From Candidatus Moraniibacteriota bacterium (GTDB lineage: Bacteria; Patescibacteriota; Minisyncoccia; Moranbacterales; UBA1568), in contig CAIOMK010000022.1 of the NCBI GenBank assembly GCA_903859375.1, positions 1 through 44,740 on the forward strand: DNA of 44,740 bases, read 5' to 3'. The position numbers were made by a program, and so were the translations under genes. Under the pieces are notes generated by a model that saw nothing but the letters and a program-made list of their open reading frames with translations, was not told the DNA's origin and searched no databases. Shown here one piece after another: positions 23,627-28,678 of the stretch; the stretch's first letter is position 1; each line of letters begins with the position of its first letter.

Positions 23627-23830
23627 AAGCGTTCGCACAGTATACCCTCATTTTGAAACGAAATCGACTATCTTGTACTTTCAAGGCTTATATAAGGAAC
23701 AAATTTTTCGTGAAATCCGATTTTCTCGTTCCTTGTCCCACAGACCAGTTACTGATTGCCAATTCCCCGTTCCAAAATTCGCCTTTCGCATTCCGCCCCC
23801 GTAAAGTCACACCGACTCTTTCCTTGTATT

Positions 23831-24319
23831 CGTTCCCGACTTTCGACTTTCGACTTGTGACTTTTCACTTTCGACTATTCTTCCCGTTCCCCACTTTCGA
23901 CTTTCAACTTTTCACTTGTTCCCGCTTTCGACTTATGACTATTCTCCGACTTTCGACTTTTCACTTGTGACTTTCGACTATTCTCCCCCGTCCCCACTTT
24001 CAACTTTCGACTATTCTCCCCCGTTCCCGCTTGTGACTTTCAACTTTCGACTTGTGACTATTCTTCGACTTGTGACTATTCTCCGACTTTCAACTTTCGA
24101 CTTTTCACTTGTGACTTTCGACTATTCTCCCCCGTCCCCACTTTCGACTTTCAACTTTCGACTTGTGACTATTCTTCGACTTTCAACTTTCGACTTGTGA
24201 CTATTCTTCGACTTGTGACTATTCTCCGACTTTCGACTTGTGACTATTCTCCCTCCCCGCTCCCGTTCCCGCTTTCAACTTTCAACTTTCGACTTGAGAC
24301 TATTCTCCGACTTTCGACT
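23831..24319. repeat. Combinatorial ACT-unit repeat array 1 (about 54 units)
   Basis: Units ACTTTCG, ACTTTCA, ACTTTTC, ACTTGTG and ACTATTCT(C/T)CG with C-rich linkers (CCCCGTCCCC, CCGTTCCCG). Confidence 0.97.
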
Positions 24320-24323
24320 CCTT

Positions 24324-26111
24324 TCATTTGGCCCCTGGAATAGGCTCTGTCGGTTCGATCTTCCCATAGGAAAGCAGGAACTTCATCATGGACCCGAACA
24401 TCGGAGCAGCACTCGATTCGGCCCACTCGACGTTCTTCGGATTGTCCACCTTGGTCAGGATGACATACTTCGGATCACCGATCGGCGCATACCCGACAAA
24501 GGATCCTATGGACAAGCCCTGCTCATACCCGCCTCCGCCTTCCTTCGCGACCTGAGCCGTCCCCGTCTTGCCACCGACCCGGTATCCCGGCACGGCGGCA
24601 CGTTTCCCGTGACCGCGAAGGACGACGCTCTCGAGCATCTTCCCCATCTTCGCCGCCGTATCTTCACTCACGACCCGACGCACCTCTTCGGGCTCCACGA
24701 TACGTTCATGTCCGTCTTCGTAGACGTATTTCTGCACGATCTGCGGTTTCATAAGGACGCCCTTGTTCGCGAGTGCGCCGTATGCCGAGATCAGTTGGAT
24801 CGGCGTCGTCGTGATGCCCTGACCGAACGAAGCGGTATAGAATTGGATATCGCGCTTGGTGTCGGCGAGGTTCCTCAGGTTTCCGGAGAGTTCCGCCGGC
24901 AAATCTATATCCGTCTTTTTCCCGAAACCGAACTGAGACATCCGTTCCGCGAAACGCGCATTCCCGACCTGACGCTCCACCGAAATGACGCCCATGTTGA
25001 TGGAATTATCGAGCACCCCGTACATATCGGTCTTTCCGTAGGTCTTTTCCTCGGCATTATGAAGGGTGTATCCGGAAAGGGTAACCGATCCAGGATCGAA
25101 AAACGGGGTCTCTGGCTCTACTTTTCCATCATCGATACCGATAGCCATGGTAATCGGTTTCATCGTCGATCCGGGCTCATAGGTCATGCTCACGGTCGGA
25201 TTTATGAAGCGGAAATAATCTTCCGTCTTCCCGTATTCGTTCGGATCGAAACTCGGATCGGACGCCATCGCGAGGATACGACCCGAAGCCGCATCCATGA
25301 CGATGACGCTTCCCCCGACCCCCGCGTATTTTTCCACTGAGTCACGCACTATCTTCTCCGCTTCATGTTGGATCACCTGGTCGATCGTCAACACGACATC
25401 GGGACCTTTCTCTGCAGGTACCACGACACGGTCATCCGTCGATATCCACCGCCCGGCGGCGTCACGCATCTGATCCACCTGACCGGATTTTCCGCGCAGT
25501 TCCGCATCGAACCACGATTCGAAACCGTATCGACCCACTTCGCCTTTTCCGGGATCTCCCGGGCTCACGAAACCGACGACCTGTGCGGCAAGATCTCCGC
25601 CGGGATAGAACCGGTTCTTCTCCTTGCGCAGATACACGCCGGGAAGTCCGAGCTCCGTCACTTTCGCCGCCTCGTCATCGGAAAGTTTCTTTTTTATCGG
25701 TGCATACTGACTGTCGAGATTCTGACACTTCGCACGGATTTCATCGGCCGGAACACCGAGTATCGAGGAAAGCGCCTCTGCAGTCGTCTTCACGTTCTCC
25801 ACTTCACCCGGCACGAGATACAGGAGCGGCGCCTCGCGGTTCACGGCAGCCGGATAGATGGTGTCCCGTTCCTGAAAATAAATCTCGCCCCGATCGGGAG
25901 TCAGCTCCGCCGATACGGACTGCTGGTTCTCCGCGACCGCCTTCCATTTATCCGCCTCGAACACCTGTACTACCGTCAATCTGAGAATGACGGCTATGCC
26001 GACCAGAAAAACAAAAAAAAGAAGAGTTCTCACCCTCCCTGTCGGAAGCGATCCATTCATCGGTTTTACAATGGCTGATGCCGATTTGTGTTTTCTCATC
26101 GCCATACTCAT
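24324..26111 (-). CDS. ftsI: Class B penicillin-binding protein (FtsI/PBP3-like)
   Basis: N-terminal TM, RGEI, RFYP, EPGSTMK (SxxK), SIN, KTGTAQ. Position after mraZ-rsmH-ftsL. Confidence 0.92.
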   Translation of the reverse strand: MSMAMRKHKSASAIVKPMNGSLPTGRVRTLLFFVFLVGIAVILRLTVVQVFEADKWKAVAENQQSVSAELTPDRGEIYFQERDTIYPAAVNREAPLLYLVPGEVENVKTTAEALSSILGVPADEIRAKCQNLDSQYAPIKKKLSDDEAAKVTELGLPGVYLRKEKNRFYPGGDLAAQVVGFVSPGDPGKGEVGRYGFESWFDAELRGKSGQVDQMRDAAGRWISTDDRVVVPAEKGPDVVLTIDQVIQHEAEKIVRDSVEKYAGVGGSVIVMDAASGRILAMASDPSFDPNEYGKTEDYFRFINPTVSMTYEPGSTMKPITMAIGIDDGKVEPETPFFDPGSVTLSGYTLHNAEEKTYGKTDMYGVLDNSINMGVISVERQVGNARFAERMSQFGFGKKTDIDLPAELSGNLRNLADTKRDIQFYTASFGQGITTTPIQLISAYGALANKGVLMKPQIVQKYVYEDGHERIVEPEEVRRVVSEDTAAKMGKMLESVVLRGHGKRAAVPGYRVGGKTGTAQVAKEGGGGYEQGLSIGSFVGYAPIGDPKYVILTKVDNPKNVEWAESSAAPMFGSMMKFLLSYGKIEPTEPIPGAK

Positions 26112-26211: not shown

Positions 26212-26553
26212 CTACCGAAAAGCGACCGTACCCCGTCCCCCGACGGTCTTCAGGTCGGTCGGGCGATCCATCTCCTTGCTCTTTGCCGAATCCTCAATAT
26301 GCGAAAGGGACAAAGCCTGAGCCTCGGAAATCTTCAACTTCCGGTTCTCCTCCTTGAGTTGAGAAATATCGGACTCCACTTTCCGCTCCTCATATCCCTG
26401 GGTCGCACCGCGATTGAGCGCGTACACGTAAGCTATGCTCGACAGGAAAAATACAAACAGTCCGACGATCGCCACCGGATGAACAGCACCTGAAAAAGAT
26501 GACTTCTTTCCTGGAATGTTTCGTTGCTCCGAGACATGGTAATCCTTTTTCAT
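26212..26553 (-). CDS. ftsL: FtsL-like cell-division protein
   Basis: Single TM followed by a coiled coil (ISQLKEENRKLKI), between rsmH and ftsI. Confidence 0.7.
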   Translation of the reverse strand: MKKDYHVSEQRNIPGKKSSFSGAVHPVAIVGLFVFFLSSIAYVYALNRGATQGYEERKVESDISQLKEENRKLKISEAQALSLSHIEDSAKSKEMDRPTDLKTVGGRGTVAFR

Positions 26554-26689
26554 ATGTTTGTGCCCCTGTTTTTTGTTTATTTTTTTTCGGCCTTCGACCC
26601 GAGACCGACTCCCATCTTTTTGTTCCCGTCTCCGACTTGTGTCCCCGTAAAACCTTGATGACTCGGCCACGGGGCATGCTTTCGATTGT

Positions 26690-27655
26690 TCATGCCCTCT
26701 CTGCCACCCGGAGTTTCGCACTCCGTGCCCGCGGATTTTCTGCGATTTCGGCTTCACTTGGCAAGATGAATTTCGGTGAGAGTGTCTTTATCAGTGGTAG
26801 CTGTCCACAGACACACTTCGGAAATCCCGTCGGACAGACACATCCTTTCGACAATTCCGAGAACACCCGTTTGACCAACGCATCCTCTCCGGAATGGAAC
26901 GTGATGACCGCGATACGGCCACCCTTCCGGAGCAATGGGATCCCATCATGCAGGAACGTCTTGATGACCGACAATTCCCCGTTCACTTCGATCCGGATCG
27001 CCTGGAACACTTTCGTCGCCGGATGAATGTTCATCTTCCTCCGCTCGACATCCGAGTAGCATCCGGAAACCGTTTCCGCAAGCTCGGACGTCCGTTCAAA
27101 GGACTTCACCTCCCGCCGTGCCACGATCGCCTTCGCTATCTTCCATGCCTTCGGTTCATCGCCGTACTCACGGAACAATTTCGCGAGGGCCTCATCATCC
27201 CATCCGTTCACGATGGTCGCCGCGGTCGTTTCCGTACGTTCGTCGAGCCGCATATCGAGCGGCCCGTCCGAACGGAAAGAAAATCCACGCTCTGCTTCGT
27301 CCATCTGGTCCGTCGAGAACCCGAAGTCCGCGAGCATCGCATCCACTTCACCTATTCCGAGAGATCGGAGCATTTCCGCGACCCGGGAAAAATTTTCCCG
27401 AACCACGACAAGCGAACCGTCCTCCATCGCCTGCCGCACACCGGTATCCGATTCCGCGGACCGCTGAAAACGCCCGATCGCCCTCTCATCGGCGTCGAAT
27501 GCGACCACCCTCCCACCGGGAAGCACACAGGAAAGTATCTTTCTCGTATGCCCACCGCCTCCGAGGGTCGCATCCACCGCCACGTCACCCTTTTGAAGGT
27601 TCATCGCCACTATCGCCTCGTTGAGTAATACTGGAATGTGTCTCGTCTCTTTCAT
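26690..27655 (-). CDS. rsmH: 16S rRNA m4C1402 methyltransferase
   Basis: HIPVLLNE, DATLGGGGH, RGFSF..DGPLDMR, FQAIRIEVN.EL, NPRARSAKLR. Confidence 0.98.
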   Translation of the reverse strand: MKETRHIPVLLNEAIVAMNLQKGDVAVDATLGGGGHTRKILSCVLPGGRVVAFDADERAIGRFQRSAESDTGVRQAMEDGSLVVVRENFSRVAEMLRSLGIGEVDAMLADFGFSTDQMDEAERGFSFRSDGPLDMRLDERTETTAATIVNGWDDEALAKLFREYGDEPKAWKIAKAIVARREVKSFERTSELAETVSGCYSDVERRKMNIHPATKVFQAIRIEVNGELSVIKTFLHDGIPLLRKGGRIAVITFHSGEDALVKRVFSELSKGCVCPTGFPKCVCGQLPLIKTLSPKFILPSEAEIAENPRARSAKLRVAERA

Positions 27656-27761: not shown

Positions 27762-27845
27762 CCGTTCCCGACTTTCGACTTATGACTATTCTCCGACTTG
27801 TGACTATTCTCCGACTTTTCACTTTTCACTTTTCACTTTTCACTT
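27762..27845. repeat. ACT-unit repeat array 2, abutting the mraZ stop codon
   Basis: ccgttcccg-ACTTTCG-ACTTATG-ACTATTCTCCG-ACTTGTG-ACTATTCTCCG-(ACTTTTC)x4. Confidence 0.95.
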
Positions 27846-27846
27846 C

Positions 27847-28281
27847 CTAATAGATTCCTAGCTTCCCAAGTTCCTCCGCGATACCATCCGTGTTCTTCTC
27901 CGCCTCGGACTTGTATGCCTTCCATCCGTCCTCGTCCCAGATCTCGAGTCTATTGAAGAGACCGACGACGACGACGTTCTTTCCGAGTCCCGCGAATTCC
28001 TTGAGGTAGTCCGGGATAAGCACGCGACCTTGGCTGTCGAGTTCCGCGTCTGTCGCGCCCGCGAGCTGCAACCGTATGAAACTTCGCGTCGCCGCTTCAC
28101 CGACCGGCATCGTACCGAGTTTCTCCGCGAGCTCTTCCCACACTTTCATCGGATACACGAAAAGCGAACGGTCCAAACCCCTCGTGACGACCACCCGGCT
28201 ACCAAGCTCCCCGCGGAACTTTGATGGCAGCGCGATGCGCCGCTTCGGGTCGATACTGTGCGAATATTCTCCGATGAACAT
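27847..28281 (-). CDS. mraZ: Transcriptional regulator MraZ
   Basis: MFIGEYSHSID.K.R, DSQGRVLIP, LEIWD. Confidence 0.97.
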   Translation of the reverse strand: MFIGEYSHSIDPKRRIALPSKFRGELGSRVVVTRGLDRSLFVYPMKVWEELAEKLGTMPVGEAATRSFIRLQLAGATDAELDSQGRVLIPDYLKEFAGLGKNVVVVGLFNRLEIWDEDGWKAYKSEAEKNTDGIAEELGKLGIY

Positions 28282-28286
28282 AGATT

Positions 28287-28351
28287 CACCACTCTTCCCC
28301 ACTTATTAGTACTTCAACGACATTTTACTCCACTCCTCTTTCCATTGTCAA
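28287..28351 (-). promoter_or_regulatory. dcw promoter (TTGACA-N18-TAAAAT) overlapping MraZ boxes
   Basis: GTGGTG (28287-92), GTGGGG (28297-302), degenerate GTACTA (28307-12) and GTGGAG (28328-33) at about 10-bp periodicity. The -35 is at 28346-51 and the -10 at 28322-27. Confidence 0.8.
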
Positions 28352-28522
28352 CACTTTCAGAAAATCCCTTATATAAAACAAAAAAACAGCCCCACTGGCT
28401 GTCAAAACACCCCATTTCCGGTCTTTTTGACTGTATCGCCCCATCGCTCATTTTCCACACTCCCCTCCCTTCCCTCCCGATTTCGTTCCAAATTCTGATC
28501 TTTTGTAAATTATTTCTTGTCA

Positions 28523-28678
28523 CCGTTCCCGCTCCCGTTCCCTCTTTTCACTTTCGACTTTTCACTTGTGACTATTCTCCGACTTTCGACTTTCGACTTT
28601 CGACTTCTGACTATTCTCCGACTTGTGACTATTCTCCGACTTTTCACTTTTCACTTTTCACTTTCGACTACTCTCCCC
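28523..28678. repeat. ACT-unit repeat array 3, upstream of the mraZ promoter
   Basis: Same unit alphabet, led by ccgttcccgctcccgttccc. Confidence 0.95.

Follow-up and report, generated by a model that had tools for sequence, protein, structure and literature searches.

Dispersed heptanucleotide repeats have long been noticed in bacteria and remain unexplained. The short tandemly repeated repetitive (STRR) sequences of heterocystous cyanobacteria are reportedly composed of such heptamers, with small dispersed repeats nested inside them. In Xanthomonas and Nostoc, GGGNATC heptamers form G-quadruplexes, occur genome-wide and are over-represented between co-oriented open reading frames (ORFs) (Rehm et al. 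2015, PMC4692102). Direct TAACTGA repeats, known from Beggiatoaceae, cyanobacteria and Bacteroidetes, number 2-6 and lie a few nucleotides ahead of start codons (MacGregor 2015, PMC4679880). Here we describe a repeat array in the spacer between ftsI and a murF-like gene of a Candidatus Moraniibacteriota bacterium, an uncultured, ultra-small member of the candidate phyla radiation (CPR). The analysed stretch, hereafter the window, is the entire 44,740-bp contig C22 of a metagenome-assembled genome (MAG) of 1.03 Mb in 78 contigs, with 52% GC and rated 94% complete. The tract is probably a non-coding, lineage-specific run-away expansion of an STRR-like heptanucleotide family, which would have grown by slippage and unequal exchange. 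It constitutes a new, elaborate member of the class of dispersed heptanucleotide repeats, and its family is an extreme case in a tiny genome. In the following, G000 denotes the genome of the window, C numbers denote its contigs and L numbers denote loci fetched from other genomes.

The core array (478 bp; coordinates are collected in Table 1) resolves completely when split at each [A/G]CT[T/A] anchor. All bases are assigned to 41 heptamers, seven eleven-mers (ACTATTCT[C/T]CG), five eleven-mer cores fused to C-rich linkers and one truncated unit. The recurring heptamers are ACTTTCG (16 copies), ACTTGTG (nine), ACTTTCA (seven) and ACTTTTC (four), and five others (GCTTTCG, GCTTGTG, GCTTTCA, ACTTATG and ACTTGAG) occur once each. 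The eleven-mers have the form ACTATTCTCCG in four copies and ACTATTCTTCG in three; the 'ACTATTCT..' core makes up the five linker-fused tokens, and the truncated unit together with its linker reads ACTTGTTCCC. The final canonical unit ends at 24316. An earlier sequence-only reading of the window had parsed the tract into ACT-type units joined through a shared ACT microhomology, and the complete assignment agrees with it, the units having an ACT/GACT anchor in common. The pattern ACTxxxxACT occurs 38 times, compared with a mean of 0.057 and a maximum of 2 in 1000 shuffles. Tandem Repeats Finder (TRF) reports periods of 7, 18, 25, 32, 33 and 47 over the tract, and the period-18 runs are clean. 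The recurring blocks pointed out before are exact and slightly longer than first given (53 bp and 57 bp), together outlining a ~144-bp tandem duplication with a diverged middle. Since all bases belong to repeat units or linkers and unique spacers are absent, the array is not a clustered regularly interspaced short palindromic repeat (CRISPR) locus, nor is it a simple microsatellite, both as the sequence-only reading maintained.

The array has neither coding nor folding potential. Pyrimidines make up 73% of its + strand (C 33, T 40, G 12 and A 15%), and the gene-sense strand is therefore purine-rich. ORFs of at least 60 aa in the tract comprise 23653-23970 and 23916-24200 on the + strand, and a 60-aa ORF on the minus strand (24244-24426), which runs into the 3' end of ftsI in a different frame. 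The ACT-reading strand of family arrays translates to F/L-rich TFDFRL-type peptides, and we read the two + strand ORFs as repeat artefacts; the ftsI-murF tract is better annotated as a repeat region than by these spurious frames. Both strands fold worse than their shuffles (z +1.59 for the sense RNA and +1.58 for the other strand), and the sense RNA is equalled or surpassed in folding by 96 of 100 shuffles, in line with the earlier proposal of a purine-rich, poorly pairing transcript. The whole window gave no Rfam match at gathering thresholds, and no promoter- or terminator-like site was found inside the array. A palindromic element of the repetitive extragenic palindromic (REP), bacterial interspersed mosaic element (BIME) or miniature inverted-repeat transposable element (MITE) kind is rejected, given the poor folding of both array strands relative to shuffles and the restriction of nested hairpin elements to other arrays.

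The array is one of many in this genome. A stricter genome tally gives 45 array regions with a total of 9,151 bp on 27 of the 78 contigs, so the dispersed copies expected by the sequence-only reading do exist. The eleven-mer-bearing 17-mer ACTTGTGACTATTCTCC, with at most one mismatch, has 93 matches in the genome and one in 40 related genomes, and its reversed control has none in the genome. TRF yields 180 rows of period 7, against 45 of period 6, 14 of period 8 and 24 of period 9, and a single period-7 row in a block-shuffled genome. About 110 of these 180 rows belong to the GACTT family, and 161 lie outside called genes, the gene calls being crude. Twenty-two of the 42 array regions with at least five units have no called gene between the array and the contig end. 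The assembly probably breaks at the arrays, whose true load is therefore likely higher, and their contig-end positions suggest that they contribute to assembly fragmentation, with at least 9 kb of assembled sequence involved. Some arrays also carry nested elements that look like passengers of the MITE/REP type. One is ~135 bp long and has inverted ends (CCTGTCATGCCGG...GGGATGACAGG), and the other is a short GC hairpin (TGTCATGCCGGGCTACGACCCGGCATCCA).

Close relatives do not carry the array at this site. The ftsI-murF spacer of four relatives (L009-L012) is 100-190 bp long and contains no array. The last ~95 nt ahead of murF are conserved, and in L010-L012 the conserved block begins directly at the ftsI stop codon, whereas in the window it begins at ~23717, leaving ~606 bp of extra DNA. 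The part from 23773 to 24323 is composed of family modules present at other loci. By this comparison of sequences, the array is an insertion relative to its kin. The conserved block itself is possibly a leader or promoter of murF. More distant CPR genomes have unrelated heptamer arrays in their ftsI-murF spacers (L032, and L042 with an inverted pair 3 nt past the ftsI stop codon), and in the mraZ-rsmH spacer the one-directional array of the window stands against an inverted heptamer pair in L009-L011. Heptamer arrays thus recur in these spacers, which are permissive sites for them. The inverted pair of the relatives (L009:1430-1520 and L010/L011:1440-1530), in which AACTGAC-type heptamers face GGTTGTG-type ones, fills the mraZ-rsmH spacer as far as the start of rsmH and might fold into a long G-U-rich hairpin that covers the ribosome-binding site.

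The unit vocabulary extends beyond the species. Three and a half tandem copies of GACTTNN match 64 times in the genome and 1-7 times in six of eight same-genus genomes. None of the 16 genomes searched from other genera of the family has a match, and four of 16 from other families do. In genomes G004, G005 and G006, isolated short modules combine linker-like parts with eleven-mer-like ones. A 24-mer has no match in GTDB representative genome contigs or in IMG/VR. In JGI metagenomes, an 18-mer gives three single chance matches with no arrays around them, and a 27-mer anchored at the ftsI end has no match among the contigs. In these searches, the form with the eleven-mer was thus absent outside the genome. 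From this distribution, the vocabulary is older than the species, and the mass expansion is specific to it. Such a recent burst, accompanied by a low-copy vocabulary in sister species, could serve to date and dissect the spread of families of this kind.

Compared with the known systems, the array family most closely resembles the STRR sequences. It consists of tandem 7-nt units at many dispersed and mostly intergenic loci, the unit is lineage-specific, and tiny repeats and hairpins are nested inside arrays whose function is, as for STRR, unexplained. Unlike STRR, it resides in a 1-Mb CPR genome, its heptamers are interleaved with the eleven-mer and C-rich hexamers in positional order, and its expansion is confined to one species of the genus. 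With the GGGNATC repeats (PMC4692102), the family shares dispersal, placement between co-oriented ORFs, a preference for four units and G-quadruplex potential on the purine strand. However, the G tract is absent from the heptamers and present only in the linkers, and the ftsI array has one canonical, linker-derived G-quadruplex motif, which excludes it from that class of G-quadruplex-forming heptamers, where each heptamer has a G tract and four units give a quadruplex. The TAACTGA repeats (PMC4679880) are likewise dispersed direct heptamers that are mostly intergenic and gene-oriented, some lying in or overlapping ORF ends. In contrast to them, the ftsI array comprises ~54 units, adjoins a stop codon and leaves ~200 nt to the next start. 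The family arrays and the published heptamer classes also have in common that they lie close to stop codons on the sense strand. Intergenic minisatellites, or variable number tandem repeats, of bacteria are also lineage-specific spacer expansions produced by slippage and unequal exchange, but they concern one locus with one unit, whereas here a multi-unit vocabulary is common to ~45 loci. A full-text literature search, with most subscription journals outside its reach, found no paper on heptamer repeats in CPR/Patescibacteria.

The vocabulary of the family is best described as the 7-mer GACTTNN, an 18-mer and C-rich hexamers (the CCCGTT-like 'linkers'). The 18-mer combines a heptamer with the 'eleven-mer', as GACTT[G/A]T + GACTA[T/C]TCT[C/T]C. 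The genome contains 78 eleven-mers in complete form, and a further 99 cores are joined to linkers. The sequence-only reading had stated that every complete eleven-mer follows ACTTGTG, ACTTATG or ACTTGAG. This rule is followed within the array (7/7) but by just 56 of 78 eleven-mers across the genome, where the preceding unit ends in G in 76 of 78 cases. Much of the order rule arises because the first base of the eleven-mer is itself a G. The proportion of units followed directly by an eleven-mer is 79/167 for ACTTGTG, 24/29 for ACTTATG, 10/11 for ACTTCTG and 35/186 for ACTTTCG, and zero for ACTTTTC (0/82) and ACTTTCA (0/15). Linkers follow an eleven-mer core in five of six cases in the array, supporting a second rule proposed earlier. 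Past a linker, the array resumes with (A/G)CTTTCG or GCTTTTC. The resulting module order is linker, CTTT(T/C)x, ACTTTCG, ACTTGTG, ACTATTCTCC. Among 166 'super-units' of this kind, 118 types are distinct, and the commonest run ahead of the eleven-mer is four heptamers (73/166). This diversity fits ongoing slippage and exchange among anchor-sharing units, not the copying of a few master elements, and a dedicated 'writer' is unneeded.

The shared GACT anchor would let slippage and unequal or ectopic exchange add, delete and recombine units. Because all units share it, combination would be possible at several scales, of 7, 18, 25-33 and ~144 bp. The outcome would be a non-periodic order that still looks rule-bound, its 'rules' reflecting unit boundaries (the eleven-mer begins with G) and an inherited module order. 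Variability of the array is the key prediction of this model. Of the mechanisms put forward in the sequence-only reading, microhomology-driven slippage and conversion fits best, given the nested exact duplications of 18, 53, 57 and ~144 bp. The array would have grown where harm is small, between the ftsI stop codon and the conserved block next to murF, and it probably has no dedicated function at the ftsI site.

Several observations weigh against this explanation. G-quadruplex motifs are enriched ~30-fold, 15 of the 36 motifs in the genome lying in or within 60 bp of arrays, which account for 1.4% of the DNA. The array-associated motifs are always on the purine strand and are given by the linkers. 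The ACT strand is antisense to the neighbouring genes at 24 of 42 regions, sense at 11, mixed at five and within genes at two, and several arrays begin exactly at stop codons. Slippage alone leaves the spread of one family to ~45 separate spacers unexplained. Moreover, the GACTT core is kept across the genus and AAGTCNN across the order (22 of 201 genomes), which exceeds the expectation for neutral junk. A Y1/IS200-type transposase (PF01797), a possible REP/RAYT-like spreader, was not found in the 94%-complete genome.

A functional multivalent platform, offered by the sequence-only reading in the form of an RNA-binding one, would draw on several of these observations. In such a platform, the AAGTC-type units (as RNA or DNA) and/or the G-rich linkers would be factor binding sites or G-quadruplexes, and a sequence-specific factor would modulate how the division and cell wall (dcw) operon and others are expressed or processed. 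The 24:11 orientation bias, the abutment of arrays on stop codons and the enrichment of G-quadruplex motifs on the purine strand argue for it, together with the prevalence of four heptamers before the eleven-mer (73/166) and the retention of the GACTT core at non-orthologous sites in six of eight sister species. Comparable behaviour in the vicinity of stop codons has been published for G-rich heptamers (Rehm 2015, PMC4692102). Nevertheless, we consider such a platform unlikely. Four close relatives have the same spacer without the array, orientation is not strict (11 of 42 regions are opposite), the number and order of units are extremely variable, and the ftsI array contains a single canonical G-quadruplex motif. 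In addition, searches of the 94%-complete genome detected neither CsrA (PF02599) nor the Rho RNA-binding domain (PF07497), and the boxes associated with MraZ look, by eye, like GTGGNG at a 10-bp period rather than heptamers. In the window, the array-associated G-quadruplex motifs are that of the ftsI array and one at 28462-28478.

The same heptamer also occurs inside genes. In-frame AAGTCNN runs always have AAGTC on the sense strand and encode peptides such as KSQKSKVKS, KSKVKSQ and KVESQKS. In an order-wide sample, the pattern of three and a half copies is present in 22 of 201 genomes, compared with two matches for the reversed control. Twenty-three of the 30 fetched loci (22 distinct places) lie within ORFs of at least 330 aa. 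Pfam naming covered 18 of these 23 long-ORF loci, one of which is TsaD of the present genome (L145 = L099). The named hosts are TsaD, MiaA, TGT, a PolyA_pol/CCA-type enzyme, LeuRS and three other class I synthetases, FemAB, an EF-G-family GTPase, a class V aminotransferase, peptidase U32, a HypF/Kae1-like protein, two GT4 glycosyltransferases, GrpE, LigA and SMC. A MiaB-like host (L086) comes from a separate search of relatives. Enzymes that handle tRNA, namely TsaD, MiaA, the MiaB-like enzyme, TGT, the CCA-type enzyme, class I synthetases and FemAB, form a striking apparent excess among the hosts sampled.

These runs suggest a second alternative, in which AAGTCNN belongs to a lineage-wide system. 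A sequence-specific mechanism linked to the Avd-like IVP genes (see below) would copy or seed units at new sites, and the ~45 arrays would be its runaway. In-frame runs would add lysine/serine-rich KSKVKSQ loops, mostly to tRNA-handling enzymes, and the same heptamer would build the inverted arms of Avd-like IVP cassettes. We regard such a system as rather improbable. The arms of the IVP cassettes and the in-frame heptamers in tRNA-handling enzymes across the order nonetheless provide leads on the connections of the repeat.

A third alternative concerns the assembly. The region is contained in four DNA runs from one lake-water study. Contigs of these runs break at the array, the flanking contigs ending at 23855 and 24212, and none of them spans it. 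Exact pieces of 61-285 nt match the array region; in up to four samples they cover 23875-24172 and 24212-24496 with no differences. These matches support the repeat and its local junctions as real, and the overall order and length are those of the assembly. Indels and joints seen inside the array are not assignable to this locus, because other family arrays map there too. The array could then be partly a construct, a real repeat whose length and block order were picked by the assembler among equivalent paths. Consistent with this, the pieces inside the array measure only 61-116 nt, the four runs offer no spanning contig, contig ends are frequent beside arrays (the 22 of 42 regions above), and the array-rich contig C21 has identical ends of 141 bp. 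In contrast, the exact internal pieces show no differences, and unique genes flank the array on both sides within one 44.7-kb contig. On balance, a construct of this kind is improbable. Contig C21 (4,575 bp) closes through its identical 141-bp ends into a circle of 4,434 bp with dnaB, recR, an IVP gene and several arrays; this circle is probably a repeat-induced assembly path, not a replicon.

The family is further associated with IVP genes (PF05635), which encode 23S rRNA intervening-sequence or Avd-like four-helix-bundle proteins, so that the associated gene family anticipated by the sequence-only reading exists elsewhere in the genome. The genome contains four PF05635 (IVP/Avd-like) matches and two reverse transcriptase (RT) genes. 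Both IVP genes that do not adjoin an RT (C21:48-446, minus strand, and C54:463-744) are bracketed by inverted heptamer arrays. The C21 gene has the GACTT family on both sides, AAGTC-type on one and ACT-type on the other, and the arms of the C54 gene are of an AT-rich flavour. Across the genus, 39 IVP matches occur in eight of nine genomes, and 30 were examined at locus level. At 16 of these 30 loci, lag-7 periodicity on one flank or both is above the 99th percentile of same-locus controls, and at nine of them this is so on both flanks; the examined loci fall into few orthologous groups and are not independent. The periodicity is absent at two scored loci read as genes for Avd of diversity-generating retroelements (DGRs; L082 and L083). 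At several other IVP loci, inverted repeats of other short periods are seen by eye. Short GACTT-family arms also flank the recR-linked IVP orthologues in the sister genomes G001, G006 and G007. Among the arrays that form IVP arms (C21:1-650 and C54:380-880 of G000, and L108-L133 of sister genomes), L112, L113 and the L127 group have G/C-rich linkers like those of the ftsI array.

The ftsI array could accordingly be a relic or spill-over of an IVP cassette, a solo arm that kept expanding after a visit of the cassette or a recombination event. The 'home' of the family would then be the inverted arms around IVP genes, forming intervening-sequence-like hairpins that RNase III, which is present in the genome, could cut. 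The same-family arms of the C21 gene and its recR-linked orthologues, the lag-7 flanks with their absence at L082 and L083, and the G/C-rich linkers in arms of other species are all compatible with this origin. However, the ftsI array is solo and one-directional. No IVP remnant was found in the window by tblastn at E values up to 10 (matches only on C21, C38 and C30), and an inverted partner is likewise absent, all three arrays on C22 being +-oriented. Most arrays of the genome are also solo, and the non-independence of the IVP loci reduces their weight. The link to IVP genes does not explain the ftsI array, and its origin as a cassette relic is very doubtful.

The two RT genes are found only on C12 and C26, each with an Avd-like neighbour, and from motifs and neighbours, rather than a family test, we read both as DGR-type. 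Family arrays lie ~100 bp upstream of the first ORF at the C26 locus. Templated writing, in which an RT or telomerase-like enzyme adds units successively by re-priming on a short RNA template, could use the 3-4 nt anchor shared by the units and the two RTs, one of them close to arrays, but is extremely improbable, as the array is internal between two chromosomal genes, both RTs are read as DGR-type with none on C22 and no array on C12, the Rfam search of the window revealed no template-like RNA gene, and the exact multi-unit duplications of 53-57 bp better fit duplication at the DNA level. The telomerase- or RT-like addition offered by the sequence-only reading is thus not supported. A DGR or RT-templated element is rejected, with the RT off the contig and the array not a template/variable pair of two copies, and so is telomerase-like terminal addition, the array lying between ftsI and the Mur ligase gene and not at a DNA end.

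Table 1. Positions of the array, its modules, related repeats and neighbouring genes. Coordinates without a contig label refer to the window.
Feature	Location	Strand	Remarks
Core array	23839-24316	+	ACT-type units on + strand, AAGTC-type on gene-sense minus strand
Degenerate last unit	24317-24323	+	ACTCCTT; abuts ftsI stop codon (24324-24326)
53-bp block	23949-24001	+	exact copy at 24093-24145
57-bp block	24035-24091	+	exact copy at 24178-24234
Canonical G-quadruplex motif	24251-24270	minus	four G3+ tracts; the only one in the array; from long linker, gene-sense strand
Flanking module	23812-23838	+	CCGACTCTTTCC..GTATTCGTTCCCG; also ahead of arrays on C14, C21, C26, C54, C32, C3
Short dispersed module	23773-23797	+	..TTCGCCTTTCGCATTCCGCC; beside arrays on C13, C43, C21, C54, C30
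Rest of ~606-bp extra DNA	23718-23772		unique, no other copy in genome
Block conserved with relatives	23639-23717	minus	GATTTCAC..TTATATAAGCC..GTCGATTTC..GTATACTG
Second family array	27771-27845	+	between mraZ and rsmH/mraW; begins at mraZ stop codon
Third family array	28523-28676	+	C-rich hexamer linker plus 16 units; upstream of conserved mraZ promoter region
MurF-like Mur ligase, 447 aa	22295-23638	minus	PF08245, PF02875
FtsI-type class B penicillin-binding protein (PBP), 595 aa	24324-26111	minus	PF00905 5.5e-78 (transpeptidase), PF03717 4.1e-16 (PBP dimerisation)
Small unassigned ORF	26390-26677	minus	
rsmH/mraW methyltransferase	26690-27655	minus	PF01795 8.6e-98
mraZ	27847-28302	minus	PF02381 4.3e-35
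Nested hairpin elements	C19:70-190; C21:3475-3600; C14:100-230; C11:75-125; C32; C3:1500-2300	minus (C14)	
Locus read as DGR	C26:723-4529		long first ORF, Avd-like gene, RT
Locus read as DGR	C12:441-1834		RT and Avd-like gene
Locus read as DGR	C58:2025-2372		Avd-like gene
TsaD, in-frame run host	C2:6283-7512		two runs
MiaA, in-frame run host	C33:721-1740		two runs
TGT, in-frame run host	C57:18032-19309		
In-frame run loci of relatives	L086, L088, L089, L093, L134-L162		
ValRS, other-flavour heptamer run	C2:2771-5485		
UvrC, other-flavour heptamer run	C43:4849-6300		
Pol I, other-flavour heptamer run	C59:52378-55023		
SufB/D, other-flavour heptamer run	C63:2503-3996		

The minus-strand genes around the array form a dcw cluster. 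Proteins of four Candidatus Moranbacteria/Moraniibacteriota MAGs share 76-79% identity with FtsI. Just upstream of mraZ, GTGGNG boxes with a 10-bp period are seen by eye at 28300-28345 on the minus strand and are kept in L009-L012; judged from their sequence, they are probably the MraZ operator repeats, distinct from the heptamer arrays. The heptamers themselves are probably not an MraZ operator; their arrays have a 7-bp period and lie elsewhere. Heptamer runs of other flavours (AACTGAC, CACTTTC/AAAAATT, GAATCAAG and GTTGTCA) are located inside four genes, those for ValRS, UvrC, Pol I and SufB/D. In addition, C58 starts with a pure array of ~21 CACACTT copies (4-150), which opens into an ORF with a sequence that by eye resembles a SpoU-like methyltransferase.

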